From: an uncultured Dehalococcoidaceae bacterium
GTDB taxonomy: Bacteria > Chloroflexota > Dehalococcoidia > Dehalococcoidales > RBG-16-60-22
DNA length: 29,842 bases
Assembly (NCBI GenBank): GCA_964414605.1
Contig: CAYPYL010000001.1
Location: 1-29,842 of the forward strand
Direction of reading: 5' to 3'
Shown piece by piece: positions 96 to 28,958 of this stretch. Position 1 is the first letter of the stretch; each line of letters opens with the position of its first letter. Position numbers and translations under genes: made by a program. Below the pieces are notes generated by a model. That model ran no database searches. It was not told the DNA's origin and was given only the letters and a program-made list of their open reading frames with translations.

Positions 96-156
96 TATCC
101 TAACCCCCTCATAAAAACCTGTATCCTTCCCGTGTCAAAGACCATTTTTAGTTGAA

Positions 157-165: not shown

Positions 166-176
166 TCCTTACTCCA

Positions 177-821: not shown

Positions 822-833
822 AGCTGACCCCTC

Positions 834-3893: not shown

Positions 3894-3894
3894 A

Positions 3895-4380
3895 TTACTC
3901 CTTCCCACTCTTGCCAAATAGTCGGGCTACCTTCTTGGGATTCATGTCGCCGTGGGCTTCTTTGTTTATCATGAGATTCGGTGCCAGCGCACAGACACCG
4001 ATACAGGCGACCGTTTCGAGGGTATATTCCATGTCGTCGGTGGTTTCCCCCTCCTCAACGCCCAGGTACTGCCTGACCAGTTTCAGGATAGTCTTGCCGC
4101 CGCGCACGTGGCAGGCGGTTCCCCGACAAACCCGTACGATATTTTTACCCCGGGGATGGGTGTAAAGCTGCTCATAAAACGTAATCACCGCCTGTACCTG
4201 GCTGGGGAACAGCCCCAAGGCGGCGGCTATACGTGGTATGGCTTCCGGGGGAATATAGCCGACCTTCTCCTGGATCTCCTGGGTCAGGGGTATCAACGCC
4301 CATCTTTCACCCCGGTAACCCGCGATAATTTTATCTATCTGTCTCATGTTTACCGGGGGTGCTTTCTTTGCCTTATCCAT
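3895..4380 (-). CDS. NuoE/HydC-like [2Fe-2S] subunit
   Basis: VCRGTACHVRGG and VACIGVCALAP ligand motifs; TFY motif; 8-nt overlap with the upstream gene. Confidence 0.92.
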   Translation of the reverse strand: MDKAKKAPPVNMRQIDKIIAGYRGERWALIPLTQEIQEKVGYIPPEAIPRIAAALGLFPSQVQAVITFYEQLYTHPRGKNIVRVCRGTACHVRGGKTILKLVRQYLGVEEGETTDDMEYTLETVACIGVCALAPNLMINKEAHGDMNPKKVARLFGKSGKE

Positions 4381-7063: not shown

Positions 7064-7879
7064 TCAAGCTGTCTCCCCATCCTGTACCTTCGGCTGGAGA
7101 GATTCAATCCACGACTGGTCGCCACGCGCCACGGAACGGATACCGGTCAGCAGCCGGGAACTGGCGGCGGCTTTGGGGATAAACCCCACCGCCCCCACCT
7201 TTTTACTGGCAAGGACATTCTCCTCGTCGTCGTACTGCGTCAGCATCAGGACCTTGGCGGTCTTTTGTTTCTGGCAAATTTCACGGGCGGCGTCCAGTCC
7301 GTTCATCACCGGCATGATAATGTCCATCACCACGACATCCGGTATGAGCTCCATAGTCTTCTCCAGCGCCTCTTTCCCGTTGACGGCCTCCCCGACGACC
7401 TGCATATCCCGCTGCAGCGTAAGCACGGATTTTATCCCGTCCCTTACCACCGCGTGGTCATCGACAATCAGCACCCTGATTTTCTTGGTAGCCCTGTCCA
7501 GCAGGGCCTGGATGCGGGGTACCAGGGCAACCGGCTCGACGGGCTTGGCGAGGAAATCTTCGGCGTCTATCTGCATACCCTCATCCATTCTCCAACCCTT
7601 GAGCAGTTGCTTTTCCGGCGGAGCATTGATAACCATGATTGGTAGATTGCCAAACCCCAGGGTCTGCTTCATCCATTTGTGGAACAGAAAGGCATCGCCG
7701 CGGGGCATAATCGTGCCCAGGACAATCGCGTCGGGCTCGTGAGAGCGTACCGACTCTTTAGCCTCTTCCTGGTCGCCGGCGGTGACGACGGTATACCCTA
7801 CTTTTTCCAGGGCCTTCTTTACCTCTTCTAAAAATTCTTCTTCGTCATCCACTATCAGAATCGTTTGTTCTTTTTCCAT
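7064..7879 (-). CDS. Tandem pseudo-receiver + NarL-type receiver protein with no output domain (271 aa from ATG 7879)
   Basis: First REC domain ILIVDDE...IVLGTIMP...KP; second REC domain VLIVDDH...VVMDIIMP...LTQYDD...PK. No HTH. RBS AAAGGAGG before ATG 7879. Confidence 0.88.
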   Translation of the reverse strand: MEKEQTILIVDDEEEFLEEVKKALEKVGYTVVTAGDQEEAKESVRSHEPDAIVLGTIMPRGDAFLFHKWMKQTLGFGNLPIMVINAPPEKQLLKGWRMDEGMQIDAEDFLAKPVEPVALVPRIQALLDRATKKIRVLIVDDHAVVRDGIKSVLTLQRDMQVVGEAVNGKEALEKTMELIPDVVVMDIIMPVMNGLDAAREICQKQKTAKVLMLTQYDDEENVLASKKVGAVGFIPKAAASSRLLTGIRSVARGDQSWIESLQPKVQDGETA

Positions 7880-7930
7880 TTTTTGCCTCCTTTCACCGGA
7901 AGCGCCTATAGTTACCACTATATGATGCAT

Positions 7931-7963
7931 AGTATAAACAGGGAATAGGGGATTTACCCCGAT
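7931..7963 (-). promoter_or_regulatory. Candidate promoter of the left redox operon: -10 TATACT (7936-7931) plus imperfect palindrome ATAGGGGATTTACCCCGAT (7945-7963)
   Basis: Read directly. The palindrome overlaps the expected -35 position and recurs at 14837-14855. Confidence 0.5.
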
Positions 7964-8082
7964 AACCGGCAGACTAAACCCCTGAATTTACGAAAATATA
8001 CCCTGACAATGGGATTAACGAAAAATGAACGGACGGCGTTACGGAGGAGCGGCAGTTTGTATGATTCCGGGTCAGGCGAAGA

Positions 8083-8736
8083 CTAAAGAGTGATGATACC
8101 CTTACGCAGAGCGGCTTTAACCAGTTCGACGCGGTTATGGACACCCAGCTTCAGCATGAGATTGGTCTTGTGCCCTTCCACGGTCTTGGGGGTTATGACC
8201 AGGATATTCGCTATTTCCTGTGTGCTGCGGCCTTCCGCGAGCAACTTGAATACCTCGCGCTCGCGTGTTGTTAATCTGTTATACGGGTCCTGCATCGTAC
8301 GTTGGCCGGCGGAGTCCCGATAGTTGTCCACCATCAGCTTGGTAACGGACGGCGAAAGGTAAGAGTCCCCCCGGAAGACCGAGCGTATCCCCACCGTGAG
8401 TTCCGAAGACGCCGCCGCCTTACTGATAAATCCGGAGGCGCCTGACTCGATAACCGGAAAGAAATACTCTTTATCATCGTACTGGGTAAGGACAAGCACT
8501 TTGGTCCTCGGGAATTCTTTACTTATGCGGCGCGTTGCCTCCAGACCGCCCATCACCGGCATGGCAATATCCATGAGCACAACATCAGGGTCCAGCTCCC
8601 GCACCTTGTCCAGTGCTTCGTTGCCGTTGGTAGCTTCTCCCACTACCTCGATATCACCGGATAATGCCAGCAGGGCGCTAATGCCGTCGCGTATGATGGT
8701 ATGGTCGTCAACTACCAGCACTCTTATCTTTTGCAT
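8083..8736 (-). CDS. NarL/FixJ-family response regulator (REC + LuxR-type HTH)
   Basis: VLVVDDH, PDVVLMDIAMP, LTTREREVFKLLAEGRSTQEIA, TPKTVEGHKTNLMLKL. Confidence 0.95.
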   Translation of the reverse strand: MQKIRVLVVDDHTIIRDGISALLALSGDIEVVGEATNGNEALDKVRELDPDVVLMDIAMPVMGGLEATRRISKEFPRTKVLVLTQYDDKEYFFPVIESGASGFISKAAASSELTVGIRSVFRGDSYLSPSVTKLMVDNYRDSAGQRTMQDPYNRLTTREREVFKLLAEGRSTQEIANILVITPKTVEGHKTNLMLKLGVHNRVELVKAALRKGIITL

Positions 8737-9970
8737 ATGCTATTTCCTGTCCGACCGGTATCCTGGCCCAGACCTTGGTACCCTTCCCCGGTTCAGATTC
8801 GATTCCGCTGGTGCCGCCGAGAAAACCGATTCTCTCCCTCATGCTGAACAGACCGCGCCCCCGACCGCTCTCCTCTACATCGGTAATTTCTGACACGTTA
8901 AATCCCTGGCCGTCATCGGTAATGGTGAGTATAAATTCATCCTGCCTGAATTCCAGTATCATGGCAGCATTCTTTGCTTTGGAATGTTTGACGATGTTGC
9001 CGATGGCGCTCTGGACGAAACGGAAAAGGGCTGCCTCGACATCAGGTGGAAACCTCATTTCTTTGCCTTTTGTCTCTATGGTCACGTTGATTTCAAGCAA
9101 CTGCAACCTGGACTCCACGTTCTGGCGAATCGCCGGTACCAGTCCCAGCGTATCCAGTAAAGCCGGGTGCAGGTTGGATATCAGCCGACTTACCTCGTTG
9201 TGCACCTGCACGGTCAATGCCTGTACCTTTTTCAGTCCGGCGGTAAATTCAGGCTCATGCTGGCCGGACATGGCGGATAACTCAATCAATGCCTGCAACT
9301 GTAGGGCTATCCCGGAAAGCGATTGACTGGTCTCGTCGTGAAGTTCGCGGGCTATCCTTCTCCTCTCGTCCTCCTCCGCCATCAGGTTCTGGCGGGCGAG
9401 CCTGCGCAGCCTCTCCCGCGCTTTCCTCAAGCGCTCGTACAGTCTGGCGTGTTCTACGGCGATGCCGAGCTGGTCGCCGATAGCGTAAAGCAGATGCATA
9501 TCGCTGGTGGTAAATTTACGGGACTCGCGACTGGCCACGTTCAGAACGCCCAATACCTTATCCCTGGCCCGGAGGGGCACACATACATATGCCTTCAGCC
9601 CCTCCGCCGCAACCATCTCCCGATGTGCCACCCGCGGGTCCGCGGAGATATCTTCGAGGAGAATAGCCTTGCCGGTCTTGGCCACGCTGCCGGAAATACC
9701 TTCGCCCAGGCTCAAACTTACATTCTCCACGAATTCCTTGCTTAGACCGCGATGTACTACGTGGGAGAGTTCCTGGGTGAGTTCATCGATGAGTAATATC
9801 TCACCGATGGTCCCGTTCATGATATCCAGGGTGCTGTCAAGACCGACACCGAGAATGGCATTTAAGTCCCAAAGGCCGCTTAACGCCGCCGATATCCTGC
9901 TTAATACCAGAAGCTCGGACTGCTGCCCGCCCTTTTTCACTTTTAGCCCATGCGTCCCAGAGGAGTTCAT
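8708..9970 (-). CDS. Cytoplasmic GAF + HisKA_3 + HATPase sensor histidine kinase
   Basis: GAF (VPLRARDKVLGVLNV), H-box ERRRIARELHDETSQ, NIVKHS, DDGQGF, GRGLFSM, GKGT. No transmembrane segment seen. ATG 9970 preferred over TTG 9994. Confidence 0.92.
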   Translation of the reverse strand: MNSSGTHGLKVKKGGQQSELLVLSRISAALSGLWDLNAILGVGLDSTLDIMNGTIGEILLIDELTQELSHVVHRGLSKEFVENVSLSLGEGISGSVAKTGKAILLEDISADPRVAHREMVAAEGLKAYVCVPLRARDKVLGVLNVASRESRKFTTSDMHLLYAIGDQLGIAVEHARLYERLRKARERLRRLARQNLMAEEDERRRIARELHDETSQSLSGIALQLQALIELSAMSGQHEPEFTAGLKKVQALTVQVHNEVSRLISNLHPALLDTLGLVPAIRQNVESRLQLLEINVTIETKGKEMRFPPDVEAALFRFVQSAIGNIVKHSKAKNAAMILEFRQDEFILTITDDGQGFNVSEITDVEESGRGRGLFSMRERIGFLGGTSGIESEPGKGTKVWARIPVGQEIAYAKDKSAGS

Positions 9971-10024
9971 TTTTCCCCACACTCCTCCCCTCAACTATAT
10001 TACGGCAACTATAACGTATCAATT

Positions 10025-12195: not shown

Positions 12196-12217
12196 TACAT
12201 GAACACCTTAATTCCAT

Positions 12218-12226
12218 ATTATATCA
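12218..12226 (-). promoter_or_regulatory. Extended -10 promoter (TGATATAAT) of the ABC operon
   Basis: Perfect TG-n-TATAAT about 22 nt upstream of ATG 12195. Confidence 0.65.
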
Positions 12227-12451
12227 TATTGTTAAGAACGCCAGTTACTTAATAACACGTCATCATCCGGCGTACCCCACGCTGTTGCATACACGATGAA
12301 AACCAGTTTTCGAACCGGAATTTGGCTTGGTGACTTAACGCGGGAGTCTCCAGCCAGACCGTGCTAGAGAAAAAGTAGAACTCTCCATATATTTTGAATT
12401 TAGCGCTTACCCCGGCCCCCCCCAATCAGGCTATAGTTACGCTAACCAATC

Positions 12452-12480
12452 TTGACAAAGGGCGATTCTAGCAGTACCTT
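12452..12480 (+). promoter_or_regulatory. sigma70-like promoter (TTGACA-N17-TACCTT) for the right-hand kinase/regulator pair
   Basis: Perfect -35, 17-nt spacer and a TAnnnT -10 just upstream of the kinase start. Confidence 0.55.
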
Positions 12481-12492
12481 TATTCATACAAG

Positions 12493-14121
12493 GTGGATGT
12501 GGAGATGGGTACGAAAAAAGCAGAGACGTCCGAGCCTATAGACTCCGGGCTGAAAGTTGACCTACAGGAAATAATCGATGCCGTAGAAGACGAGCTTCTG
12601 CTAGTCGACCCCGATTACCGTGTCAGGTTCGCTAATGCAGCTATGCTCAATAAATACCAGACCAAAGGCGATTCGCCTATCGGCAAGTTGTGCTATAAGG
12701 TCTTTCATAACAGGAACACTCCCTGCCATGAACCTTTTTGGGACTGCCCCCTGCAACAGGTCGTTGAAAGCGGGAACATGACGACGGTTATTCATCCTGT
12801 CAACCAGCCCGGAGTTCATGGTTACGTAAAAATCACGGCATATCCTATTTTTGACAAGCAGGGCAAGACCAGAGCCATGGTGGAATTGCGGAGGGATGTC
12901 ACCGCGGAAAGAGAACTGGAAACGCAGATTCTCAGGCGACATCATCAACTTTTAGCATTGAGTCATATCTCGGGTGCCGTGAGCGGACTGTATGATCTGG
13001 ATACCATTTTAAAGACTGCACTGGATGATGTGCTAGAGCTTGTTAACAGCGACATCGGAGGCATTTTACTCTTTGATGAAGAGTCCCAGACCTTGAGCTA
13101 TCGGGTACAGCGTGGATTATCCGCAAAATACACCGAAGAGGCTAAAATACCCCTGGGTAAGAGCATCGCGGGACAGGCGGCAGAAATCGGCGAGCCCATA
13201 ATAGTGGAGGATATTTCCAAGGACCCGCGTATCACCCGGCCGGAGCTAGTTATCGCCGAGGGACTCAAAGGATTTGTGAGTATTCCCCTTAAGGCGAAGG
13301 AAAAAGTGACCGGGGTAATGAATATCGCCAGCCACGTGGCAAACCGTTTTGCCGCCGACGAGGTCTCTTTACTCAAGTCGATTGGCGATTATCTGGGTAC
13401 GGCAATTGAGCAGGCAAGACTCTACGATAGGCTGGCGCAGGCGGGAGAAAGATATCGGGCGCTTCTACAACACGCCCTGACGGCACAGGAACAGGAACGA
13501 AAGAGGATAGCCCGCGAATTACACGACGACACCAGCCAGGCGATTACCAGCCTGACCTTAAGCCTCCAGGCGATAATGACGATTGCGGAGATGAAGGGTA
13601 TCGGGGATGCCGAATTTATAGAGAAGGTCAAAGCGACGCACTCCTTCGCGGTTCACGCCGGCCATGAAATCGTGAGGCTAATGAAAGAACTCCGGCCCAG
13701 CCTGCTGGATGAGCTCGGTATGCCGGCGGCGATACACCGTTACGCCAAGGACACGCTTCAGTCTCATGGAATCAACGTATCTTCTGAATTTAATGGTACG
13801 GAAAAGAGGTTCCCGCCAGAGGTCGAAGTGACTCTTTTCCGGGTGGCGCAGGGACTAATCGGCAATATCCTGGAACACTCCGAAGCGAAGAATACCCTGG
13901 TTAAACTGGAATGTGATGAAAATGAGTGTACGCTGTATATAGAGGACGATGGCAAAGGCTTTGATGTGAAGAAACTAACGCGGGTTGACCCCAGCGGAAG
14001 GGGGGCGGGTTTGTTCACTCTCAAGGAGAGGGTAAGTCTGGCCGGAGGACACTGCCATATCGACTCCCGTCCGGGGCAGGGCACCAAGGTAACCGTAAAA
14101 ATACCGCTTGTGGAAATTTAA
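12493..14121 (+). CDS. Cytoplasmic PAS (Cys-motif) + GAF + HisKA_3 + HATPase sensor histidine kinase
   Basis: PAS (VDPDYRVRFAN...GKLCYKVF...RDVT), GAF (IPLKAKEKVTGVMNI), H-box ERKRIARELHDDTSQ, DDGKGF, GAGLF, GQGT. Confidence 0.92.
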   Translation: MDVEMGTKKAETSEPIDSGLKVDLQEIIDAVEDELLLVDPDYRVRFANAAMLNKYQTKGDSPIGKLCYKVFHNRNTPCHEPFWDCPLQQVVESGNMTTVIHPVNQPGVHGYVKITAYPIFDKQGKTRAMVELRRDVTAERELETQILRRHHQLLALSHISGAVSGLYDLDTILKTALDDVLELVNSDIGGILLFDEESQTLSYRVQRGLSAKYTEEAKIPLGKSIAGQAAEIGEPIIVEDISKDPRITRPELVIAEGLKGFVSIPLKAKEKVTGVMNIASHVANRFAADEVSLLKSIGDYLGTAIEQARLYDRLAQAGERYRALLQHALTAQEQERKRIARELHDDTSQAITSLTLSLQAIMTIAEMKGIGDAEFIEKVKATHSFAVHAGHEIVRLMKELRPSLLDELGMPAAIHRYAKDTLQSHGINVSSEFNGTEKRFPPEVEVTLFRVAQGLIGNILEHSEAKNTLVKLECDENECTLYIEDDGKGFDVKKLTRVDPSGRGAGLFTLKERVSLAGGHCHIDSRPGQGTKVTVKIPLVEI

Positions 14122-14124
14122 CGT

Positions 14125-14778
14125 ATGAAGAAAATAAAGGTATTGATAGTTGATGACCATACCCTGGTACGGGCCGGAATACGTTCCCTGCTGATGCTCG
14201 TCGATGATATCGAAGTAGTCGGCGAGGCATCGGACGGTAAAGAAGCCCTGACAAAGGTAAGGCAACTCATGCCTGACGTGGTACTCATGGACCTGGCAAT
14301 GCCGGTCATGGGCGGACTCGAAGCCACACGACGTTTACGAAAGGAATTCCCCGGCATAAAGGTACTGGCACTGACACAATATGACGATAGCGAATATGTT
14401 ATTCCCATCATCGAAGCAGGTGCCAGCGGTTTTGTAACTAAGATGTCGGCGTTTACGGAGCTTGCCGCGGCTATCGAAGCCGCCAATAGAGGAGAATCCT
14501 ACCTGTCTTCAACTGCCGCCACGGCTCTTGTCGAGGAATATCAGCAGAAAATACCATCTAACGGCGAACAGGACCCTTACCAGCAGCTAACGGATAGGGA
14601 GAGGGAAGTGATTAAGCTGGTTGCGGAAGGGCATACCAGCCGTGAGATTGCCGAGATACTTATCGTCAGCCCCAAGACGGTGGAGTGGTATAAAAGCAGC
14701 TTGATGAACAAGCTGAACCTCCGCAGCAAGACCGACCTGATTAAGTATGCCATCCGCAAGCGGATAATAACAATATAG
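14125..14778 (+). CDS. NarL/FixJ-family response regulator (REC + LuxR-type HTH)
   Basis: VLIVDDH, PDVVLMDLAMP, LTDREREVIKLVAEGHTSREIA, SPKTVEWYKSSLMNKL. Confidence 0.95.
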   Translation: MKKIKVLIVDDHTLVRAGIRSLLMLVDDIEVVGEASDGKEALTKVRQLMPDVVLMDLAMPVMGGLEATRRLRKEFPGIKVLALTQYDDSEYVIPIIEAGASGFVTKMSAFTELAAAIEAANRGESYLSSTAATALVEEYQQKIPSNGEQDPYQQLTDREREVIKLVAEGHTSREIAEILIVSPKTVEWYKSSLMNKLNLRSKTDLIKYAIRKRIITI

Positions 14779-14836
14779 CCGCATCACAGTGAGCCCCTTA
14801 AACCCAGCGATAGCCAGTACTTTTCCCGGTTGAGAA

Positions 14837-14855
14837 TTAGGGTATTTACCGGTAT
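14837..14855. promoter_or_regulatory. Candidate response-regulator operator TTAGGGTATTTACCGGTAT
   Basis: Shares TAGGG-N-ATTTACC-NNN-AT with 7946-7963; lies upstream of the right redox operon. Confidence 0.5.
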
Positions 14856-14920
14856 ATATTCCAGAGCCGTACCCCCTTGCTTTCCGTTGCATTTCCTATT
14901 GCCTGGTTCCGGCGGTCTGG

Positions 14921-14929
14921 TGGCATAAT
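14921..14929 (+). promoter_or_regulatory. Possible extended -10 (TGGCATAAT) of the right redox operon
   Basis: TG-n-CATAAT about 57 nt upstream of ATG 14987. Confidence 0.35.
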
Positions 14930-14986
14930 TAAGTAGTATATTAACCGTCGATTGTTGCCACTCAACAGAGATTGAGGTGTTTGCTG

Positions 14987-17095
14987 ATGAATGTGGTTAA
15001 CAAGAAATCGCCGGAAAATTATCAGGAAAGCGCTCTAGACCACAGCCTGGTACCTCCCTGCCAGGATGTCTGCCCCCTGCATATGGATATCAGAGAATAT
15101 GTCGGGCTGGTTTCTCAAGGCAGGATTATGGAGGCGCTCCAGGTCATCAGAACGGGCAACCCTTTCCCATCTATTTGCGCTTACGTATGCACGCATCCCT
15201 GTGAAGAAGCCTGCCGGCGCTCTCAAGTGGATAAACCCCTCGCCATCCGCTCCCTGAAAAGGTTCGCCGTGGAATTCGGCGGCGACCGGATGGTGCAGGC
15301 TGAAGCTGAGACCAAGTATACGGAAAAGGTAGCCATTGTGGGCTCCGGGCCAGCCGGTCTGGCCTGCGCTTACTATCAAAAAAAAATGGGCTATCCGGTG
15401 ACTATACTCGAAGCCCATTCCGAACTCGGAGGCATGCTCCGTGTAGGCATCCCCCAGTATAGACTCCCCCGTGAAGTCCTGGATATTGAAGTCCAGAGAC
15501 TTACAAGCATGGGAGTTGAAATCAGGACGAATACCCGGGTGGTGTCCCTGGACCTGCTCTTTGAGCTTGGTTACAAAGCTATCTTCATCACCATCGGCGC
15601 TCATCAGAGTCTCAGAATGGGGATAGAGGGAGAGGAGAGCCCCGGGGTAATAGACGGCGCGACTTTTCTCCGCGAGGTTAACCTCGGGTTGAAGCCGTCC
15701 CTGGGGAGAAAGGTTGCCGTGGTCGGTGGGGGGAACGTAGCCATTGACGCGGCGCGTACAGCAACCCGTCTGGGTGTCAAAAAGGTAAGAATCCTCTACC
15801 GTCGCACCCGCGCGGAAATGCCAGCCGACCCCCAGGAGATAGAACAGGCCTTGGAAGAGGGGATTGAAATCGTTTACCTGGTAATTCCGACGAAAGTTAA
15901 AAGGATAAATAAGAGATTGACGGTAACCTGCGTTAGAATGGAACTCGGCGATCCTGACGAGAGTGGTCGGCAGCGACCGTTACCGGTCAAGGGCAGCGAA
16001 TTTGATGAGAATTATGATACCTTAATCGGTGCTATCGGGCAGGCGCCCCAGACCCCGGACGATTTTGGAGTCCGCATCGGCAGGGGTAGCACGATTCAGG
16101 TCGATCCTGTCACCCTCACCACCAATAGAGCCGGGGTCTTTGCCGGAGGTGATGCCGTCACCGGCCCGGCTACAGTGACCGAAGCTCTGGCGGCCGGCAG
16201 ACTTGCGGCGTCACGCATCGATGATTATCTCCAGCACCGGTATCCACTGCCGATAAGAGATACTAAAGAGAAACTTAGCGGCGACCTCAAGCCGGAAACG
16301 ATAGAGATGATAAAAAAGGTCGAGCGGGTCGAGCCGCCGAGTCTGGATGGCGAAGACCGGACTAAAGACTTCGAAACGGTTGAACTTGTTTATGGATGGG
16401 AACAGGCTATTAACGAGGCGCGGAGGTGCCTGCGATGCGGCGTGGGTGTGGAAATCCTGTTTCAGGATAAGTGTGCCACCTGCCTTACTTGCTTGAGGGT
16501 ATGTCCGTATCACGTGCCTTATCTTGATGAAAGCGGTACCGTTCGTATACCTGCTGACCAGTGCCAGGCTTGCGGTATATGTGTGGCTGAATGCCCTGCC
16601 AAGGCGATAGTCTTGAGAAAGCCGTTTGACCGGCGCCAGGTGAATGATGAGTTGAGTCACACCATAAAACTGGTTGCCGAATCGAAAAATAAGCCGCTTA
16701 TTATTGGTTTCTGTTGCCAGTATGGCCTCTTTGGTACCGGGACTCTGGCCAGGTTGTGGCGGGGTGGCAAAGCGGGCGTCAGTATCGTGCCGGTTCTCTG
16801 CGTTGCCAAGGTGGAGGAGTCCCACCTGTTGGCTGCCTTTGAGATGGGTGCCGAAGGAGTCTTCATCGCGGGGTGCGGGGAGCAGTGCGCTCGCGAAAAT
16901 ACCACCTACTGGGTGCAGCAGCGCGTGGCGAAAGTCAGGAAGATAATGAAGCCGATTGGCCTCGAGCCCGAACGACTCCAGGTTTTCGCTCTCGGCACTA
17001 CCACCGATGACCCCGCCGAAGAATTGGATAAATTCGTTGAGCAACTAAGCGCCCTCCGTTTGACTTCAGTAATAAAGGGGGAGGTGAAAAGTTGA
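14987..17095 (+). CDS. GltD/DsrL-like FAD/NAD(P)H oxidoreductase + 2x[4Fe-4S] ferredoxin + MvhD/FlpD-like domain fusion
   Basis: PPCQDVCP, NPFPSICAYVC, GSGPAG, IPQYRLP, GGGNVAID, YRRT, FAGGD, EARRCLRC, then CATCLTCLRVCP and CQACGICVAECP, then IIGFCCQY...VLC...GAEGVFIAGCGEQC...GLEPERL. SD GAGGTG favours ATG 14987. Confidence 0.88.
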   Translation: MNVVNKKSPENYQESALDHSLVPPCQDVCPLHMDIREYVGLVSQGRIMEALQVIRTGNPFPSICAYVCTHPCEEACRRSQVDKPLAIRSLKRFAVEFGGDRMVQAEAETKYTEKVAIVGSGPAGLACAYYQKKMGYPVTILEAHSELGGMLRVGIPQYRLPREVLDIEVQRLTSMGVEIRTNTRVVSLDLLFELGYKAIFITIGAHQSLRMGIEGEESPGVIDGATFLREVNLGLKPSLGRKVAVVGGGNVAIDAARTATRLGVKKVRILYRRTRAEMPADPQEIEQALEEGIEIVYLVIPTKVKRINKRLTVTCVRMELGDPDESGRQRPLPVKGSEFDENYDTLIGAIGQAPQTPDDFGVRIGRGSTIQVDPVTLTTNRAGVFAGGDAVTGPATVTEALAAGRLAASRIDDYLQHRYPLPIRDTKEKLSGDLKPETIEMIKKVERVEPPSLDGEDRTKDFETVELVYGWEQAINEARRCLRCGVGVEILFQDKCATCLTCLRVCPYHVPYLDESGTVRIPADQCQACGICVAECPAKAIVLRKPFDRRQVNDELSHTIKLVAESKNKPLIIGFCCQYGLFGTGTLARLWRGGKAGVSIVPVLCVAKVEESHLLAAFEMGAEGVFIAGCGEQCARENTTYWVQQRVAKVRKIMKPIGLEPERLQVFALGTTTDDPAEELDKFVEQLSALRLTSVIKGEVKS

Positions 17096-17775
17096 TAGTA
17101 GCGGAGCAAAAGCCTCTGGAAGATATAATACGCATGATTGGCCCTTATCAACGAGTATTGATACTCGGTTGTGGCACCTGCATGACGGTATGTGACGCCG
17201 GTGGTGAGCGTGAGGTCTCTTTTCTCCACGACGCATTACAGCTGGCGCAGACAAGGAGTGGTGAAGGTGCTCATACCTTTACCGAACATACCGTGAAAAG
17301 GCAGTGCGACCCGGAGTTCCTGGAGCCGCTTGCCGAAAGAATAGCTGATTTGGACGTAATACTATCGCTGGGTTGTGGCATCGGCGTGCAGGCTATAGCG
17401 GAACGTTTTGCGGATATGCCGGTGCTGCCCGGCGTTAACACCTCTTTCATGGGTATGACTAAAGAATCGGGGGTCTGGGATGAGCGCTGCGCCGCTTGCG
17501 GTGAGTGCCGGCTGGAAGACACTGCCGGCATATGTCCAATCACCAGGTGTACTAAAGGCATACTCAACGGTCCCTGTGCCGGTACTAAGAACGGTAAATG
17601 TGAGGCTAATAAGGATATGGACTGCGCCTGGATTTTAATTTATCAGCGCCTGGAAAGATTACAGCAACTGGACAAGATGCGCCGGTATTACGCTCCCCGG
17701 AATTACCGGGCAATCCCCAGACCGAGAAGAATCACGATTAACGTAGAGACTGCGGTGGGAGAAAGCGATGGCTAA
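17092..17775 (+). CDS. metV: MetV, second copy
   Basis: GCGTCMTVCDAGG, RQCD, GCGIG and 8-Cys block CAACGEC...CPITRC...PC...C...CAW. TTG start overlaps the upstream TGA. Confidence 0.92.
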   Translation: MIVAEQKPLEDIIRMIGPYQRVLILGCGTCMTVCDAGGEREVSFLHDALQLAQTRSGEGAHTFTEHTVKRQCDPEFLEPLAERIADLDVILSLGCGIGVQAIAERFADMPVLPGVNTSFMGMTKESGVWDERCAACGECRLEDTAGICPITRCTKGILNGPCAGTKNGKCEANKDMDCAWILIYQRLERLQQLDKMRRYYAPRNYRAIPRPRRITINVETAVGESDG

Positions 17776-18670
17776 TTCGTTATTTGAAGAGAAACTCAAC
17801 TCCAATGAATTTATCGTGACAACGGAGGTGGGGCCTCCCAAGAGCGTCGATGTCACGGAACTGGTTCACCATATCAAGCTGCTCAAGAATAAAGTCGATG
17901 CTATAAATATCACGGACCATCAGAGCTCCGTGATGCGTTTCCCCTCGATAGGTGGCTGTTTACTGGTGAAGGAACTCAAGGGCGAGCCAATCCTCCAGAT
18001 GACCTGTCGTGACAGGAACCGTCTGGCGCTGGAGGCTGAGCTTCTCCTGGCTTACTCCAGAGGTATTACCAATGTGCTCTGTCTAACGGGGGACTCGATT
18101 GACGTGGGAGACCATAAAGATGCCAAGCCCGTTTTCGACCTTGATTCCGTGCAGTTATTGAAAATGGTAAAGATCATGGAATCCGGGGTCGATATGGGAG
18201 GCAATGAACTGGGGGCAGCCCCGAAATTTTGTACCGGCACCTCCGTCCACCCGGAGGCAGACTTCATCGAGCCGCAGCTTATTAAATTCGACAAGAAAGT
18301 CGCTGCCGGCGCACAATTTTTTCAGACCCAGGGTATATTTGACCTGGCGAGCCTCCGCCGATTTATGCAGTATGCCTCACAGTTTGACGTTAAAATCCTG
18401 GCAGGTATCATCGTCCTCTCATCGGCCGGCATGGCCCGCTATATGAATAACAATGTCCCCGGTATAATTGTCGCCCAGCCACTTATTGATGAACTGGCTG
18501 CGGTGGAAAAAGGTAAGGGGCTCCAGAAAGGGATTGAAATTGCCGCAAGGTTTATAAAAACTATCAAGGAAGAAAACCTGTGTCACGGCGTGCATATCAT
18601 GGCGGTGGGTAATGAAGGTATAGTGCCCGATATTTTATTGGCTGCCGGGCTTGTTGACAAGCGCGGCTAA
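17768..18670 (+). CDS. metF: Methylenetetrahydrofolate reductase MetF, second copy
   Basis: TTEVGPP, LQMTCRDRNR, LTGD, GDH..AKPVFDLDS, AGAQFFQTQ, GVHIM. 8-nt overlap with metV. Confidence 0.93.
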   Translation: MANSLFEEKLNSNEFIVTTEVGPPKSVDVTELVHHIKLLKNKVDAINITDHQSSVMRFPSIGGCLLVKELKGEPILQMTCRDRNRLALEAELLLAYSRGITNVLCLTGDSIDVGDHKDAKPVFDLDSVQLLKMVKIMESGVDMGGNELGAAPKFCTGTSVHPEADFIEPQLIKFDKKVAAGAQFFQTQGIFDLASLRRFMQYASQFDVKILAGIIVLSSAGMARYMNNNVPGIIVAQPLIDELAAVEKGKGLQKGIEIAARFIKTIKEENLCHGVHIMAVGNEGIVPDILLAAGLVDKRG

Positions 18671-18739
18671 GGTGCCTTTGGTCAGGTATATTACCGGGTG
18701 GCCATAATGGCTATATTCACGGTAGTGGAGGAGAATGAG

Positions 18740-19594
18740 ATGAGTAACGATAAGACAAAAAAGACAGTGAAATCCGGGATAAAGAAAGAAAGCAAACGAG
18801 CTAAGAAGGAAAAAGTCCTGATTATTGACGACGAACCCACTTTTGTGGAGTCATGCCGGCGTACTCTGGAAGCTAAAAACTTCAAGGTTACGACAGCATC
18901 GAGCCAGGCCCAAGCCAAGGAGGTGATAAGAAAAGAACCGAATCTTATTATACTAGGTACGATGGCACCGGCCGGGCAGGCGTTTGCCATGTATCAGTGG
19001 CTGGGGCAGCATCCGAGGTATAAGGAAATACCATTACTCGTCATCGACGCCCGCTACGAAGAGCGACCGATCAGGGGATGGCGGAGGTTCGAAGGTTTGC
19101 AGGTGGACGGCGACGAATATTTGTTTAAACCCATTGAGCCGGCCTCGCTTATTCCCCGTATTCAGAGCTTGCTTGAAGCCATTACCAAGAAAATAAGAGT
19201 GCTTGTCGTCGATGACCACACCATGGTCAGGACCGGGATATGTTCGGTTGTCTCTCTGCAAAAGGACATGGAGGTGGTCGGCGAAGCAGTCGACGGGCGT
19301 GATGCTTTTGATAAGGCGTTACGCCTCCTACCGCACGTTGCCCTGGTGGATATCGTCATGCCGGAAATGAGCGGCATCGAAGCGACCAAGCTGATACATC
19401 AAGAGTGCCCGGAGACTAAGGTCCTGGTTTTGACCCAGTATGATGAAGAAGAAAACATGATTATCGCCAAACAATCGGGGGCTTATGGTTTCATTCCTAA
19501 AAAAGCTGCCAGCTCTGACCTCATCAGAGGCATAAGATACGTGAGCCAGGGTAAATATTATCCGACGTCTTTTGCCGAGCTAGTTATTAAGTAG
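18740..19594 (+). CDS. Second tandem pseudo-receiver + NarL-type receiver protein with no output domain
   Basis: VLIIDDE...IILGTMAP...KP then VLVVDDH...VALVDIVMP...LTQYDE...PK. SD GGAGGAG before ATG 18740. Confidence 0.88.
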   Translation: MSNDKTKKTVKSGIKKESKRAKKEKVLIIDDEPTFVESCRRTLEAKNFKVTTASSQAQAKEVIRKEPNLIILGTMAPAGQAFAMYQWLGQHPRYKEIPLLVIDARYEERPIRGWRRFEGLQVDGDEYLFKPIEPASLIPRIQSLLEAITKKIRVLVVDDHTMVRTGICSVVSLQKDMEVVGEAVDGRDAFDKALRLLPHVALVDIVMPEMSGIEATKLIHQECPETKVLVLTQYDEEENMIIAKQSGAYGFIPKKAASSDLIRGIRYVSQGKYYPTSFAELVIK

Positions 19595-19950
19595 TAGTGA
19601 TAGCCGACGAAGTATTACTCTCAAATTAGCTATATTGCGAGCGAAGAGGCGGTTCTACGTTGCACGGTGAAGTAGTATTTTACGATAGGTTGCAACTACT
19701 AGATAGCTTCCGAACTGGTATGATAATTCGTGATTATAACGGTAGGCCGTGCTGGATAATAGCTAAAACTTTTTCTAATGATTTTGCCCTTGTGTTCTAA
19801 AGACAAATCCTCTTATGGTGGGCGGTGGTGTACAATACGTGGAACTTTTAAATTGGCTTTTAACCTATCTGGTTAGCTTAAAACAGGTAAAATATCAACT
19901 TATTGGACTGGGAGACAGGAGAGAGTTGAGCTCCACCTGAAACAATACTA

Positions 19951-20250
19951 GTGGCTACTCCAATATTCGTGCAGCCACTTTACCTCTTTTGCCCAGAAGC
20001 CCATGGATCCTTCGCCGACCCTTACCTTGCTGTATTTGCCACCGAGGTGAATAATAATGCCGAGGCGGCTGGTTTAAGGTGTGCCATCGTCCTTCTTTGT
20101 TACAAAAGGGGCCAACATTCCGTCGTTGCCTTCGATACGACGGACAGGGGTATGATTTACATTGAACCTCAAACCGATGCCGCAATCGAACCCGAAGTTG
20201 GCGGCAAGTACCAAGGAGAGGAAATCAAGGAAATCCCCATACCTTGGTGA
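19951..20250 (+). pseudogene. Probable remnant (C-terminal half) of a papain/transglutaminase-like cysteine-protease-fold protein
   Basis: FATEVNNNAEAAGLRCA...HSVVAF.T.D.G.IYIEPQ resembles the His and EPQ segments of this fold. No Cys at the expected nucleophile position just before FA, and no good RBS at the GTG. Confidence 0.5.
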
Positions 20251-20602: not shown

Positions 20603-23600
20603 TTACCCTCGCACTCTGGTTCGTGAGCGTATCACGATAAAAGCGACGACTAATACTGCTAACGCGGCCAGAATTATCACGGCTATGACCCAGCCTCTTG
20701 TCGCTGACGGTAATTCCTCCTCTGGTTGTTCCGCAGGTAACGAAGGTTCCGATTCCGCTGGCTCTGGGGTTGGTGTTATCTCCGATGCTGGCTCGGGGAC
20801 AGGTGCCGGAGTCGGTTCCGGCTCAGGCGCGGGTGCAAGCCCCGGAGTCGGAGCCGGTTCCGGTGCTGGCGCAGGGACATGTTTCGGGGCCAGTTCCGGC
20901 TCGGGCGTACCGATGACAGCAAAGGTGGTAAAGTGCGAGACTAAGGCGGTAATAGTATCGTTTTCGGTATCAACTGCACAATCCAACTCGACCCATTTCC
21001 CGGCATCCTCGTCGTAGTAGGCTATAACCAGGTCTTCTTCGGCCACATTCTCGGGTAGGGCACCGGGGTCATATTTCCAGGTCAGGGTTATGGCCGGGTC
21101 AAAGGTAACTCCATCGGGGCAGAAGTCATAAGCCAGCCCGATGATGTGGGCAGCCTCGGGTGGAGACGGGGGCTCATCCATTGTCAGCATGGTTATTTCG
21201 GTAAGGGGTCTCAGGTTGCTGATCAGGCCTACCGTGCCCCTGGGAATGGTAAGGGTGCATAAATTATCCTCGGACGTAGCGGTCACTGACTTGATAAAAC
21301 GACCTGTCGCAGTCACCAACCCTCTGATGTCGGTAGTGCCAGGTTCTCCCACTGCTCCGCCGCCGCCGGATCCTGACGCCGTTATAGACTGAATAGAACC
21401 GCCACCGGCAAATACAGAACCGCTCAGGTCATCCAGGCTCGGTATAGTATCATGTCTTATCTTAGCCCACATATAGCCGCTATAAGCTGGCGGTCCGGGG
21501 ATATTGGTTGTATTTACGCCACCATCCGAGCAAACTATCCAATCCGTACCGTTCCACCAGCGCAGTCTCAGCGAAGATTCGTCTAACCCGGAAATTTCAT
21601 CGTCGGTATAGTAAACTGTAATGACAATTTCCTCGACATCCGTGACGTTATCGGCGTGGACATCTATGTAATTGCCGGTAGTTCCGCTAAAGCCGGTGCC
21701 CGGGTTGCTGTTGTACTTGGCCACCGTGATTATCGGTGTGCCGGTCCCCTTCTTTTCAACAGTGGTACTCGCCTCAGTCTTGGCATCAACGGTGACATTA
21801 CTGGTAGACGTTTTCTCTGTCTTGGTTTCGGTCACGTCCGCCCCAATCCAAGGGTTGTACTTAACAAAGTCACTAACATTCGACGAGACGGCAGTTTCAT
21901 CTTTGCTCCCCCACCAGTTGTTGGTGGCATTGAGCAGGAAGCCGTTGGTCGGTTCCCCGACGACCCGAATGCCGTACTCGCCGTTACTGTAGATGCTATT
22001 GAATTGTGCGGTGACACCTTCGGTCTGGTCAGACCATGGAATCCTGTCGCCTACCTCAAAATCAGGATTATGATAGAGGGCGGTAAAGTCTAACCGGATG
22101 CCATCCCAGCCGTTATCGTAAATTTTGTTGCCATTAATGGTATAGTCTTTGTTAATCGGCCCCATGTAGATAGCATTCTTCCCGTTGCTGTAAATTTCGT
22201 TATCTACGATTGTCAGGTCTTCTGGGCCGAGGCCGGGATTATCTTCGAGATGGCTGTCGCTAGAGCCGCGGATAAGGAGGATGCCATTACCGTATTTCAG
22301 GTTGCCGGCATCGCCCTCGAACATGTTTCCGTTGCTGTAAACCTTGTTATTTCGTATGATCAGATCCGAATAGCCACCGGCGGTCTCTATACCGCTGCGG
22401 TGGGCGCCATAGATTTCGTTATCCTCGATAACCGTCCCGTTCATAGAGGCCGGGCCGGGGGCACCGTAAGCGGGATTGGAATACGACGACCAGAGGAAGA
22501 TATTGTTGCCGTTGCCCTGGCAGTCGAATATCTTGTTGCCGGAGAAGGTGCTGTTGACAACGCCATACTGGTCGCTGTACGGGTTGTTTACGATGTATAA
22601 CCCCATGCGACCGTGCGTGCCGTCCTGGCTGGCCACGTTAGTGTTGGGCCCGATGATGTTATTCCTGATGACAACGTTACTGACATTGTCGGATTGAGCG
22701 CGGACACGGATTAGTGAACTATTCTGGTTACCTACAGCATTGAGCTCCTGGACGATGAATCCTTCAAAGGTGACATCATCGGTATCGACAATATCGACAA
22801 TGGTCAAGTAACCGCCCGCGGGGTCGGGATGGTTGATGATAGATTCGACCGTATCATCCCAGCCATAGCCGGCGGGGACGGGATAACCGTTCTTGTTAAC
22901 ACCATATGTAGCCCCGCGCAGCTTGAGCGGCTTGCCGATTGCAATGGCTTCGGTATAGGTTCCCGGAGCCGCATTGATGGTATCGTCATCGTTGGCAGCA
23001 TCAATGGCTGCCTGAATTTCACAACCGGGGCTGACGTATAGTTGAGTACGGTCGGTAAGGCTCTCGATGTAGATTCCGCTTGCGAGGAGGTGGCCAACGG
23101 GGGCTAAAGGAGCCACATTCTGTGCATCCGCCAGCGTCTCGAAAAACAAGATGCGGTTCTGATCCGGCCCGTCATCCTGGTCGCCGTGCAGTGCGTAGCC
23201 GAACTCGCCGGCCTGCACGGTGACATCGGCGCCGTCAGTAATATCGGTGCTGTATGTGATAATTGCTTCCCCGGCAGGTGCCACGCCAGGATTGTTGAAG
23301 TCACCCTCCTCAAGCTGGAAGACATTTTCAAAGCTGTTGGTGCCGTTAAACACGATGCCGCTCGTTCCGAGCGGGGAGTAATGGCCCCAGGTTGCGACGC
23401 TGACGGCCTGCCAACCACTGCCGCTGGTGGTAATGTCCGAGAGGGTAATGTTATTGCAGTCAACCAGTGATATGCCGTGGCCGCCGTTGTCTCTTGACTC
23501 CACGTGGCTAATAGTGGCATTCGCGCTGCCAAGGAAGTCGAAACCGGAGCGAAAGATATCTCTTACCAGTATATCCGTCACGGAGCCACCACTAACCTCA

Positions 23601-26600
23601 CCGAACTTGATGCCGTACCGTGGTAACGTGTCGGTGGGGTCGCTGAGCACCGTAAAGCCCTGAAGAGATACATTATCAGCCGATACGTAAATACCGGCGT
23701 TGTTTACCGCCAGGCCGCTTACATTGACGGTAACCTGCGAGGTACCCGTACCGACGATACCGACACCCTTGTTTACGGCCAGGCATTCGTTGTAGGTACC
23801 CGCCGCTACATTAATCGTATCGCTTTCATCGGCATCATCAATGGCGCTCTGGATGCAGTTATACTTGATGTCCTGAGTGACGTTCTTGACATTATAGTCC
23901 CTCTGGGCGCCATCGGCGGCATCGAGCCATGGAGTGTAGTCGACGTTAGCGGTCACTTCATCGCCGCTGGCGCAGGGGTTGGTGGTGGCCTGTTTGGGTC
24001 CGGTGGCCGAGCCCCAATAGTTGCCGGTAGCATCGAAAACAGCAGTTTCCGCATTATAGGCAGCAACACTCTCCACCCCATATTTACGGTTGTCGTAGAT
24101 TTTGTTCGAGTGGGCATAAGATGACGAGCTCTTTATTACGGTAATTCCGATATAGTTATCGTGGATATTGTTGTTCTCGACAATGACCGCGGAGTCTTCC
24201 TCATCAAAATATTCAAGCCAACCGTTTATGTATATTCCGGCAGAAGTCCAACTTGGCTCTGGTATGAAAGTATTGTCGCAGTTGTAGATTTCATTCCCCC
24301 TGATTACCACCTGACTGCCGGTGCCCGGAGTAGCATCATTATAGGCACCTTCAACTTCTATACCGTAGCATACCTCGCCTTCGCCGCCGTATACTTGACC
24401 TTTGATGGTGCTATCAAGTACTTCAACCGTACAGCCGTTGTAAACGAAGACTCCAATCCTGCCGAAGTCTTCTATCTGGCAGTCATTAATAGTTACCTCT
24501 GAACCGTCCCATATGCCGATTGCTTGGCTGTACATATTCCCTATATTGTTCGGAGATACCGTGCAGGCAGTCATATTACCGCTGGAGTTTTCGTAGATGA
24601 CCCCGTAATTTTTCGTGTTGATCGTGCCGAGGTCCTCTCCCTGGATACCCAATCCATCAAGGATGACGTTAGAGGAATTTTTAACGAAAACGACGCAATC
24701 CCTGTTAGTGTAAGCGGTAGCCACCGATTGTACACCCTGGACGGCAGCACCCCCGCTGGACTGAATGGTCAGGTCGGTTTTAGTATCTACGGTAAACGGG
24801 GAATAAGACCCCGCCGACACCATGACGGTATCATCATCAATGGCATTATCAATAGCGTCCTGAATACTGCTCCAGATGGCGGGGAGGAGCGAAGCTCCAT
24901 CACGGTCAACGACTACAGTCTGGTCAAAGGTATTATTAGCGAGAACATCCTCGGTATCCAGGGTTCCACTGTCATCCAGAACGTGGACATTGTTATCAGT
25001 AAAATCATTGGATTGAATAACGGTACCACTGTGAGCATGTTCTATGTATATCCCGTTATTGACGTTGTTGCTAATCCCGTTTTGAGTGACTGTCAAACCA
25101 GTGACATTATAGAAGTAGATACCTTCACAGGCTCCATTAATGGTATTGCCTTGCACGGTATTATCGTGGAGCGCGCCGGCTGCCATCAGAGCGGCAATTT
25201 TTTCGGGGTCAGTCCTATCGGGGTCCCCTTCACTATTGCCGAGTATAGTGCCTACTTCTATACCTACCCCATTATTAGCCCCGGCGGCCGTTATGGTATT
25301 ATTCAGGATTTGATTGCCTGATATATCCTCATCACCGTCTAGAAGGTCGTATTGGCCATAACGCGTATCGAGGCATAAACAAATTCCGGGGCAGGAATAG
25401 CTCTCTGCCGTTGCTGTTGCATTGACCTCGTTATACTGTATCAGATTTCCGGTGCATTGCTGTTGTGCCTTGGCACCGACGAAGATACCTATACCCCCGC
25501 CGCCGGAGGCCACCGTATTGGTTATGGTATTATTCGTTATCACCCAGTCGCTACCGCCCCAGTTGGTGATTCCCTGGACGGTGCCGTCGCTGTTGATGGT
25601 CAGTGAGTCAACAGTTACATCATCCACCTCTATAGCGTAAACACCGAGGTCAAGATCTTCGGATACATCACAGTTGATGGTGAAGTTCCTTATCTCAACT
25701 CCATCGGCTTCAGGTCTGAAAGCGGAGTGAAGTGCGTCGTTGTCAACTTTGTATGGTACGCCACTGACGATAACCGATGTTCCGTCTTCCGCGCCGTAGA
25801 GCTTCACTGCTCTATCTACAATGGCTCCGGCATACTCGCCCGTAAGCACGTTGATGGTATCGTTATCACTGGCGGCATCAATAGCTGCCTGGATGAAGTT
25901 ATACGTGGTATCTTGAGTGATGTTCTTGACATTATATTCTCGCGGGTTCCCTTCGGGATAGGCGGCGTCAAGCCAGGGAGAGTAAGTTATATCATCGGAC
26001 ACCTCGTCACCGCTGGAGTAGGGGTTGGTGGTGGCATGCTTCGGCCCGTTAGCCGAACCCCACCAGTTGAGGGTGGCATTGACAGATGCTGCCGTTGACG
26101 TTGAATCTATTCCATAATCGGTATTCCCTTCGATGTTATTGTAGTGAGCTTCTACAGCGCTTGTATCCTCTTCGTCATAGCCAACGGCAATCCCTCCGCT
26201 GTTGCCAGTAAACGTATTTTCGTTGATGGTAGCTTGAGTGCCTTCTCCATAATAGGTGGTCACAAGGATAGCTGCCGATGTGGAGCCATCAACCGATGCA
26301 ACGCCTTTGCAATTCGTTATGGTAGAGCCTGCAACGGTTATCTCTCCGCCGTTTCCAGCTTCAAACCCGTAATCAAGCCAATCACCGTCACCTTTGCCGG
26401 TGTAGGTACAACCGCTAATTAAAGTGCTGGCAGTAGGATTGTATGTGAAGACACCGATTCTGTATATGTTGCTGAATGTACAATTGAGGACTTCCACATG
26501 CTGACCGTAATTATTGATACCGCGACCTTGATATCCTGCCGGTGTATGCGCGATATTCATAAAGTCACAGTCTTCCACAGTGCCACCGCCACTGTCCCCG

Positions 26601-28774: not shown

Positions 28775-28958
28775 CTTCCTATCCTCCTTTACCTTTTCAA
28801 GCTGATTTGTCACGCTTGGTCTCACTACGAAGAGATCAACGATTACTTTCCTCAATCTCCCTCCTTTTGTGATGGTCCTTTCTTGCAAATCACCTATGAT
28901 TCCTGTTAAAATAAAAACAGGTGGTGGCTTACCCGTTATCGCCTAAATTCTTTTCTTG

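Follow-up and report, generated by a model that had tools for sequence, protein, structure and literature searches.

Methylene-tetrahydrofolate (methylene-THF) reductases (MTHFRs) fall into four described types: MetF alone (type I), MetVF (type II), RnfC2-MetVF (type III), and MetFV-HdrABC-MvhD (type IV) (PMC8760232; restated in April 2026, PMC13040438). What donates electrons to the MetVF-type enzymes under physiological conditions is an open problem in Wood-Ljungdahl bioenergetics: type II enzymes in vitro accept ferredoxin and nothing else, which is energetically inconsistent, and in papers to 2026 the partner of type IV is unknown (PMC8760232, PMC13040438). Here, we analyze a 29,842-nucleotide (nt) stretch of DNA from an uncultured Dehalococcoidaceae bacterium (assembly GCA_964414605.1, contig CAYPYL010000001.1, positions 1–29,842, forward strand; hereafter, the window), in which a 702-amino acid (aa) protein that fuses a GltD-type flavodomain, a ferredoxin domain, and an MvhD domain is encoded directly upstream of metV and metF. 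On balance, we think it probable that the fusion, MetV, and MetF form one soluble, non-bifurcating NADPH:methylene-THF oxidoreductase.

The fusion protein, MetV, and MetF

The open reading frame (ORF) of the fusion opens at 14972 or 14987 and closes at 17095 on the forward strand, to which all coordinates refer unless stated otherwise. ATG 14987 is the likelier start because a Shine-Dalgarno sequence, GAGGTG, sits 6 nt upstream, which places the gene at 14987–17095. Drawing on Pfam, NCBIfam, PDB sequence matches, AlphaFold, and Foldseek, we predict a domain order of two [4Fe-4S] clusters, a flavin adenine dinucleotide (FAD) and NAD(P)H region of the GltD/NfnL type, a 2×[4Fe-4S] ferredoxin, and MvhD (FlpD), with all four Pfam modules scoring well above their cutoffs. 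A preliminary description of this DNA had already read the product as a single chain with a YRR-bearing FAD/NAD(P)H domain, a 2×[4Fe-4S] domain, and an MvhD-like domain, and both Pfam and the motif positions agree with it.

The N-terminal cluster domain (Fer4_20, E 8e-21) occupies residues 23–97 (15053–15277) and contains C25, C29, C65, C68, C72, C76, and K91. Upon alignment, the arrangement of C25/C29 and C65/C68/C72/C76 with one non-Cys ligand position matches that of T. maritima NfnB, and C29, C68, C72, C76, and K91 are invariant across 27 proteins of the same architecture. K91 (codon 15257–15259) is predicted to coordinate the FAD-proximal [4Fe-4S] cluster as its one ligand other than Cys. 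The FAD and NAD(P)H Rossmann domains follow at residues 114–404 (15326–16198; Pyr_redox_2, E 1.5e-31). Over residues 20–540, the closest solved relatives are the subunits for NADPH input of three Bfu-type transhydrogenases, Caldicellulosiruptor NfnABC (9bov), Sporomusa StnABC (8oh5), and Thermococcus NfnABC (9n5u); NfnL/NfnB, glutamate synthase beta, and dihydropyrimidine dehydrogenase come next. The AlphaFold model of the fusion (pLDDT 86, pTM 0.84) superposes in Foldseek on NfnL (5jca_L, 4ylf_B) with a root mean square deviation (rmsd) of 2.3–2.7 Å over ~425 columns and a target-normalized TM-score of 0.78–0.79, and sequence matches of the flavodomain to NfnL reach E values of 1e-72 to 1e-81.

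The ferredoxin domain (residues 493–541, 16463–16609; Fer4 dicluster models) carries two CxxCxxCxxxCP motifs, C496/499/502/506 and C526/529/532/536, and aligns with the segment of 9bov_A that follows its NfnL-like domain. Ten Cys residues in the C-terminal half are invariant in the fusion family, namely these eight and C481/C484. The latter form an R-C-L-x-C pair (16427–16438) that precedes the ferredoxin domain, lies outside both CxxCxxCxxxCP clusters, and is also found in NfnA/StnA. Together, the ferredoxin and MvhD domains (residues 493–690) match positions 576–771 of NF040770 (HdrA2) with an E value of 1e-35. Because the same di-domain forms the C-terminal part of Methanosarcina HdrA2, the pair is a pre-existing unit.

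The MvhD/FlpD domain itself (PF02662; residues 572–690, 16700–17056) is matched over 122 of the 123 positions of the profile with an E value of 1.5e-20; its score of 73.9 bits exceeds the cutoff of 22.3. It gives an E value of 9e-15 to PDB chain 5odc_D. The two divergent motifs noted in the preliminary description are both present, FCCQYG at residues 575–580 and CVAKV at 605–609. For the four plausible [2Fe-2S] ligands that it suggested, the alignments offer candidates: C577, C605, C630, and C634 fall on Cys or selenocysteine at positions 13, 42, 67, and 72 of the solved MvhD chains and are conserved in the fusion family, and on that conservation we predict them to be the ligands. Stand-alone MvhD proteins have at position 67 either Cys or what is probably selenocysteine. 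The ligand set seems flexible, since the anammox versions lose the C605 equivalent and have CxxxxCxxC instead.

Stand-alone mvhD ORFs beside long hdrA-metVF clusters end exactly at the Cys67 position (L038:4721-4921, L049:3943-4176, L075:3416-3622, and L079:4025-4225), which suggests an in-frame UGA for selenocysteine, as in the solved chain 9sfi_K. The stand-alone MvhD proteins that adjoin such clusters keep Cys16 of the canonical FCCxxC motif.

Downstream lie metV (17092–17775; 227 aa; DUF5981/MTHFR_C, PF12225, E 4.7e-35), encoding the predicted iron-sulfur/zinc subunit, and metF (17768–18670; 300 aa; MTHFR, PF02219, E 1.6e-34), encoding the predicted catalytic flavin subunit of methylene-THF reductase. 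The start codon of metV is TTG, preceded by GGGGGAGGTG, and overlaps the fusion stop by 4 nt as TTGA, whereas the metF ATG and the metV stop share the 8 nt ATGGCTAA; both overlaps had been pointed out before and are as described. With a strong Shine-Dalgarno sequence at each of the three starts, these overlaps indicate that the fusion, metV, and metF are translationally coupled.

An acetogen-type MetF beside a Cys-rich MetV of the MTHFR_C/DUF5981 family marks the pair as a MetVF-type MTHFR. [quoted passage not shown] MetF is remote from the NAD(P)H-using E. coli/Thermus-type MetF structures (E about 1e-6), as expected of a MetF that needs an external electron-input subunit.

Distribution and linkage to metVF

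To place the fusion among its relatives, we used a profile-free search of 1.8 billion representative proteins, the alignment from which was then scanned against one genome per GTDB species. The nearest relatives are 84–89% identical and come from metagenome-assembled genomes labeled Dehalococcoidales or Chloroflexota. More than 120 database clusters match the domain list of the fusion at 75% identity or higher. In the source records, they are labeled "FAD-dependent oxidoreductase," "heterodisulfide reductase subunit A," "formate dehydrogenase beta subunit," or "glutamate synthase beta-like/F420-hydrogenase delta"; abundant as the family thus is, it carries no functional name. The profile-free search, which was exhaustive, found about 25 further clusters (from clustering at 50% identity) that have the full-length architecture at 33–47% identity to the window protein. 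Two readings of the fusion that follow such labels, HdrA and formate dehydrogenase beta subunit, were considered and rejected, as the module has no formate dehydrogenase catalytic partner and the fusion has no HdrA core.

Whether the same architecture is already characterized had been raised in the preliminary description. We found no description of a GltD-ferredoxin-MvhD protein beside metVF in open-access full text, although an earlier mention may exist; the architecture is not rare but plentiful in databases under generic annotations. A 2017 paper on Chloroflexi described the Moorella-type cluster only (PMC5736913).

The scan returned 80 loci, which were annotated by BLAST against the window proteins, and 68 of them bear the fusion (32 close and 36 distant). 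Within the close clade (61–89% identity), metV lies directly downstream in all 32 loci, with the identical 4-nt overlap in 25. Among the distant loci of the same architecture (35–42% identity), metV and/or metF is adjacent in 25 of 36, and another three end too early to judge. The linked distant loci belong to Brocadiia/Planctomycetota, Nitrospirota, Anaerolineae, Actinomycetota, other Dehalococcoidia, one Syntrophobacterales genome, and one Fibrobacterota genome. The search for this architecture and neighborhood, which the preliminary description had proposed, thus finds it well beyond the window. Chance adjacency of the fusion and metVF was considered and rejected, as the linkage persists across phyla. 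The fusion, metV, and metF are a conserved unit.

Five loci were also inspected by Pfam with 10-kb flanks. Two Dehalococcoidia contigs (L001 and L002) carry the same six-gene cassette as the window between unrelated flanks. The complete Brocadia genome (L083, CP064969.1) encodes fusion-metV-metF and a Kuenenia contig (L085) fusion-metV, and a Scalindua genome (L084) has no metV at this point, the fusion there overlapping metF itself.

Clustering of all neighboring ORFs shows that metV, metF, and two-component genes are the only ones that recur near the fusion. No Hdr-like gene recurs there in the 68 fusion-bearing loci or in the five with 10-kb flanks, and within the window, as the preliminary description had stated, Pfam finds no hdrA, hdrB, or hdrC among the proteins. 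These results bear on the possibility that the MvhD domain docks on an HdrABC or HdrA-like complex encoded elsewhere, giving a type IV-like MetFV-Hdr enzyme with an extra NADPH input. Such docking would agree with the binding of MvhD to HdrA in all characterized cases (cf. PMC9430772) and with earlier surveys, which often found metF-metV-mvhD apart from hdrABC; a 2018 survey took these clusters to imply HdrABC elsewhere (PMC6085437). In addition, on one Dehalococcoidia contig (L049:3-8049) a fusion gene closes a row made up of a long hdrA, small mvhD, metV, and metF, and Scalinduaceae have both hdrABC and mvhD (PMC9325076). The same survey, however, reports hdrABC to be absent from Brocadiaceae, and Brocadia carries the fusion-metVF cluster; the fusion itself, moreover, would supply the electron source and, by translational coupling, the sink. 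Because no Hdr gene recurs nearby and Brocadia has the cluster in a family reported to lack hdrABC, dependence on an elsewhere-encoded HdrABC is unlikely, and we regard such an adaptor role as quite improbable.

The fusion on the L049 contig is 35% identical to that of the window, and there the two kinds of input module flank a single metVF pair.

Proposed electron path, cofactor choice, and alternatives

In the oxidoreductase that we favor, the FAD in the GltD/NfnL-like domain would take up a hydride from NADPH, and single electrons would then exit through the two N-terminal [4Fe-4S] clusters, cross the two [4Fe-4S] clusters of the ferredoxin domain to the [2Fe-2S] cluster of MvhD, and continue through the MetV clusters and the MetF flavin to methylene-THF. 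We infer complex formation, the order of cofactors, NADPH as the donor, and the direction of the reaction from sequence. The potential of NADPH is −320 mV. That of methylene-THF is quoted as −200 mV (PMC5861303), and because the transfer between the two runs downhill, nothing besides a linear wire would be required. In Sporomusa, tagged MvhD pulled down MetF (PMC9430772), which fits docking of the MvhD domain on MetVF as well as the metV-free layout of Scalindua.

The case for NADPH comes from YRR at residues 271–273 (15797–15805), where the NAD(P)H domain reads ...VRILYRRTRAEMPA. The motif aligns with Y310/R311/R312 of T. maritima NfnB ("YRRT" in 4ylf_B). In NfnB, it grips the 2'-phosphate of NADPH, and the same motif divides NADP(H)-specific DsrL-2 from NAD(H)-using DsrL-1 (PMC7596348). 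YRR supports NADPH as the donor without proving it. The close clade has YRR in 30 loci and CLE in two, and most of the distant clades, including every anammox genus checked, have C-L-E-(S/N/C), with the acidic residue ending the second beta-strand; CLE would be a classic NAD(H) signature. Every anammox genus checked has the fusion, in the CLE form (also listed: L031-L032, L040-L045, L057, L061, L063, L072, and L074).

One representative with CLE, P0121, is 65–83% identical to the window protein elsewhere and 28% identical at residues 263–345, where YRR is replaced. In this and two other close homologs (L027 and L029), the sharp divergence is confined to ~80 residues, window positions 15773–16021. 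The difference over residues 263–345 looks like a recombinational exchange of the cofactor-specificity subdomain, and natural YRR and CLE variants that differ in this 80-residue subdomain alone offer a ready-made experiment on cofactor choice.

The nature of the pyridine nucleotide also bears on direction. The complex could instead oxidize methyl-THF to methylene-THF and reduce NADP+, in the oxidation of methyl groups or acetate through a reversed Wood-Ljungdahl pathway. Dehalococcoidia have often been proposed to run the pathway either way (PMC5736913), the type III enzyme of A. woodii is reversible upon product removal (PMC8760232), and two differently regulated metVF modules in the window (the second is described below) would suit two directions or two donors. 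Reduction of NADP+ by methyl-THF (−200 mV) would be strongly uphill, however; on the reasoning given for DsrL-2, a site of the NADPH type indicates that the enzyme serves reduction (PMC7596348), and the NADH-like CLE variants would be better suited to oxidation. To operation in the oxidative direction we give the least credence of the alternatives considered here.

A different question is whether the flavin bifurcates. The NfnL-like FAD might split the electron pair of NADPH, with one electron passing via the MvhD [2Fe-2S] cluster, which would take the place of that in NfnS, and through MetV and MetF to methylene-THF and the other via the [4Fe-4S] chain to ferredoxin. The sum would be 2 NADPH + methylene-THF + oxidized ferredoxin -> 2 NADP+ + methyl-THF + reduced ferredoxin, or the reverse by confurcation. 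The flavodomain is close structural kin of bifurcating NfnL, as the rmsd and E values above attest; the fusion offers two separate electron exits, its [4Fe-4S] clusters and its [2Fe-2S] domain; and the energetics would balance, as the mean of −200 mV and about −450 mV lies near the potential of NADPH. A bifurcating MetVF enzyme has long been postulated (PMC8760232), and MvhD feeds a bifurcating flavin in every known case (cf. PMC5861303).

The ligand at the FAD-proximal cluster points the other way. Bifurcating NfnL has a Glu at this position, in the motif LERF, which the fusion lacks; its invariant K91 stands in LKRF, as in NfnA/StnA (alignment; PMC12018979). In NfnABC/Stn, the FAD at the Lys site merely oxidizes NADPH and bifurcation takes place at a distant FMN (flavin mononucleotide) site (PMC12018979). 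The ferredoxin domain, furthermore, stands between flavodomain and MvhD in the sequence, which suits a single wire better than two branches, and DsrL, with the same GltD and ferredoxin build, acts as a plain NAD(P)H:acceptor oxidoreductase (PMC7596348). A gene for an NfnS (PyrK-like) partner is not present in the window and does not recur in the related loci. The Lys ligand and the domain order speak weakly against bifurcation, which we consider unlikely but worth keeping in view. A minimal three-subunit bifurcating methylene-THF reductase, in which electrons from NADPH (NADH in the CLE-type relatives) would be split between methylene-THF via MvhD and ferredoxin via the [4Fe-4S] clusters, seems to us slightly less likely again. 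If true, it would provide Dehalococcoidia, anammox bacteria, and Nitrospirota with the step that conserves energy in the methyl branch, which has long been sought.

Several observations weigh against the linear NADPH:methylene-THF oxidoreductase. For every family member, the function of the fusion is argued from protein and gene sequences, and the absence of hdrABC covers the window and the neighborhoods of the related loci. A simple linear wire leaves the need for an MvhD domain unexplained. Canonical Cys16 of MvhD is Gly580 in the fusion, and the position is variable across the fused family. In an attempt to calibrate the YRR motif, we found it in most long Moorella-type HdrA homologs, though the Moorella complex is reported to oxidize NADH (PMC8760232, PMC13040438), and this weakens the assignment of NADPH. 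Finally, eight of the 36 distant loci lack metVF in the flanking 3 to 6 kb that were retrieved on each side, among them six from Syntrophomonadaceae/Bacillota and one from Nitrospirota; because some copies have no metVF nearby, the fusion may also serve other partners. The Syntrophomonadaceae/Bacillota copies (L037, L043, L044, L055, L059, and L073) sit between ppdK and dnaG-rpoD, sometimes beside an FMN_red gene.

Should the linear oxidoreductase be right, it would constitute a fifth type of MTHFR, in which MvhD acts as a connector outside Hdr complexes, and "mvhD next to metVF" in metagenome models, hitherto taken as Hdr-dependent bifurcation (PMC6085437), would need rereading. Fusion-metVF would then be a self-contained answer to the question of the electron donor for many uncultured or enrichment organisms, including Dehalococcoidia, the anammox genera checked, Nitrospirota, and others. 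The hypothesis is testable with three genes.

Surrounding genes and comparison with known systems

The fusion, metV, and metF are the third to fifth of six forward-strand genes that the ORF listing places in series at 12.5–19.6 kb. The first encodes a sensor histidine kinase (12493–14121; Pfam PAS_4, GAF, HisKA_3, and HATPase_c) and the second a response regulator with receiver and LuxR/GerE helix-turn-helix domains (14125–14778; Pfam), whose position directly upstream of the fusion gene is conserved. The product of the last (18740–19594; Pfam) has two receiver domains but lacks an output domain; the ORF finder starts it at GTG 18698, and ATG 18740 has the Shine-Dalgarno sequence GGAGGAG. In nearly all 32 loci of the close clade, the kinase and regulator genes precede the fusion and a double-receiver gene follows downstream. 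Counted singly, the kinase gene lies upstream of the fusion in 30 related loci, and also in L001 and L002 with their differing outer flanks, and the double-receiver gene follows metF in 27. Expression of fusion-metVF is probably under the control of the neighboring PAS-GAF kinase and LuxR-type regulator.

A 208-nt leader (14779–14986) separates the regulator from the fusion and contains the GAGGTG Shine-Dalgarno sequence and recurring TTCC...GGAA-like half sites. When it is aligned with those of 26 related loci, the 27 leaders have in common these half sites and an A-rich block, which may be candidate operators of the LuxR-type regulator. An Rfam scan of the whole window found no riboswitch or leader RNA family. 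A scan of 12200–20000 found no sigma-70 promoter in the leader, the sigma-70 model being uninformative for a Chloroflexota genome; over the same range, terminator-like sites occurred at chance level, with none between metF and the double-receiver gene, in a scan that is likewise uninformative for Chloroflexota.

A second MetVF module, module 1, lies on the reverse strand at 1–9994. It comprises an FdhA-like molybdopterin protein (4373–7063; TIGR01591, 652 bits, just below the cutoff of 666), NuoE (3895–4380), a 1027-aa NuoF-GltD fusion that also has YRR (834–3917), a second MetV that is 42% identical to the first (177–821), and a second metF that starts near 95 and is cut short by the left end. 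Ahead of these come a paralogous kinase (8708–9994), regulator (8083–8736), and double-receiver protein (7064–7930) that belong to module 1, all on the reverse strand. In its sequence, module 1 resembles a rearranged Stn/NfnABC-type complex joined to MetVF. The organism therefore appears to maintain two MetVF enzymes that differ in their electron-input modules and are regulated separately, which supports the view that the gene before metVF decides the electron source. Also on the reverse strand, at 20603–28888, is an ORF of 2761 aa that probably encodes a surface protein: it shows a hydrophobic segment at the N terminus, a hydrophobic anchor at the C terminus, long regions rich in repeats, and a linker rich in Pro, Glu, and Ala.

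Among the known systems, type IV of Moorella thermoacetica and Sporomusa ovata shares with the window unit the kind of MetV and MetF and an MvhD element encoded directly upstream of metV. In Moorella HdrA (1487 aa), too, a GltD domain of the same NAD(P)H/FAD type provides the NAD(P)H site (PMC9430772), and homologous long HdrA proteins of ~1475 aa, which are followed by small mvhD, metV, and metF, are 42–48% identical to the fusion in the GltD part. Unlike type IV, the window unit has no thioredoxin-reductase-like HdrA core, HdrB, or HdrC, its likeness to HdrA beyond the GltD domain being limited to the C-terminal ferredoxin/MvhD part of HdrA2. Its MvhD is a domain of the input protein rather than a separate subunit and lacks Cys16 of FCCxxC, and its chemistry is expected to be simple and downhill, as against bifurcation or confurcation with an unknown third partner. 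The preliminary description had held that a GltD-type flavodomain replaces HdrABC. That no Hdr-like gene recurs agrees with this, but the wording was imprecise given that Moorella HdrA already holds the GltD domain. Since it does, the fusion looks like a type IV input stripped of its thioredoxin-reductase-like HdrA cores and of HdrBC, with GltD, ferredoxin, and MvhD retained.

Type III RnfC2-MetVF of Acetobacterium woodii is also built by adding one subunit that gives MetVF a pyridine-nucleotide site and an iron-sulfur wire, and that enzyme is soluble and non-bifurcating (PMC8760232). There, the extra subunit has an RnfC/NuoF-like fold with FMN and uses NADH, whereas the fusion has a GltD/NfnL fold with FAD, NADPH as its predicted donor, and an interposed MvhD [2Fe-2S] domain. 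Pfam finds no RnfC or Complex1_51K domain in the fusion; the NuoF-like protein of the window belongs to module 1.

DsrL has the same build as the fusion to about residue 545: two [4Fe-4S] clusters at the N terminus are followed by FAD, an NAD(P) domain, a linker, and a 2×[4Fe-4S] ferredoxin. It likewise divides into subtypes with YRR (NADP) and without YRR (NAD) (PMC7596348). It has no MvhD domain, however, and its partner is DsrAB, whereas the fusion is linked to metVF, and no dsr genes occur in the window or in the related loci. NfnA/StnA of the Bfu family (9bov, 8oh5, and 9n5u), the best match in sequence and fold over residues 20–540, shares the Lys-ligated proximal cluster with LKRF (PMC12018979). 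Unlike the fusion, which continues into ferredoxin and then MvhD, it runs on into a NuoG/Fdh-like domain and docks the NuoE/NuoF-like subunits where bifurcation occurs.

The ferredoxin-MvhD di-domain is shared with HdrA2 of Methanosarcina, an HdrA-MvhD fusion in which the di-domain is preceded by a bifurcating HdrA core in place of the GltD/NfnL domain. FlxABCD-HdrABC of Desulfovibrio, like the fusion, is an NAD(P)H-oxidizing flavoprotein set that ends in an MvhD-like element, FlxD, but it consists of separate subunits, passes its electrons to HdrABC, and is not known to be linked to MetVF. Set against these systems, every domain of the fusion and the MetVF core are known, and what is new is their combination, the loss of Hdr, and the breadth of the distribution.

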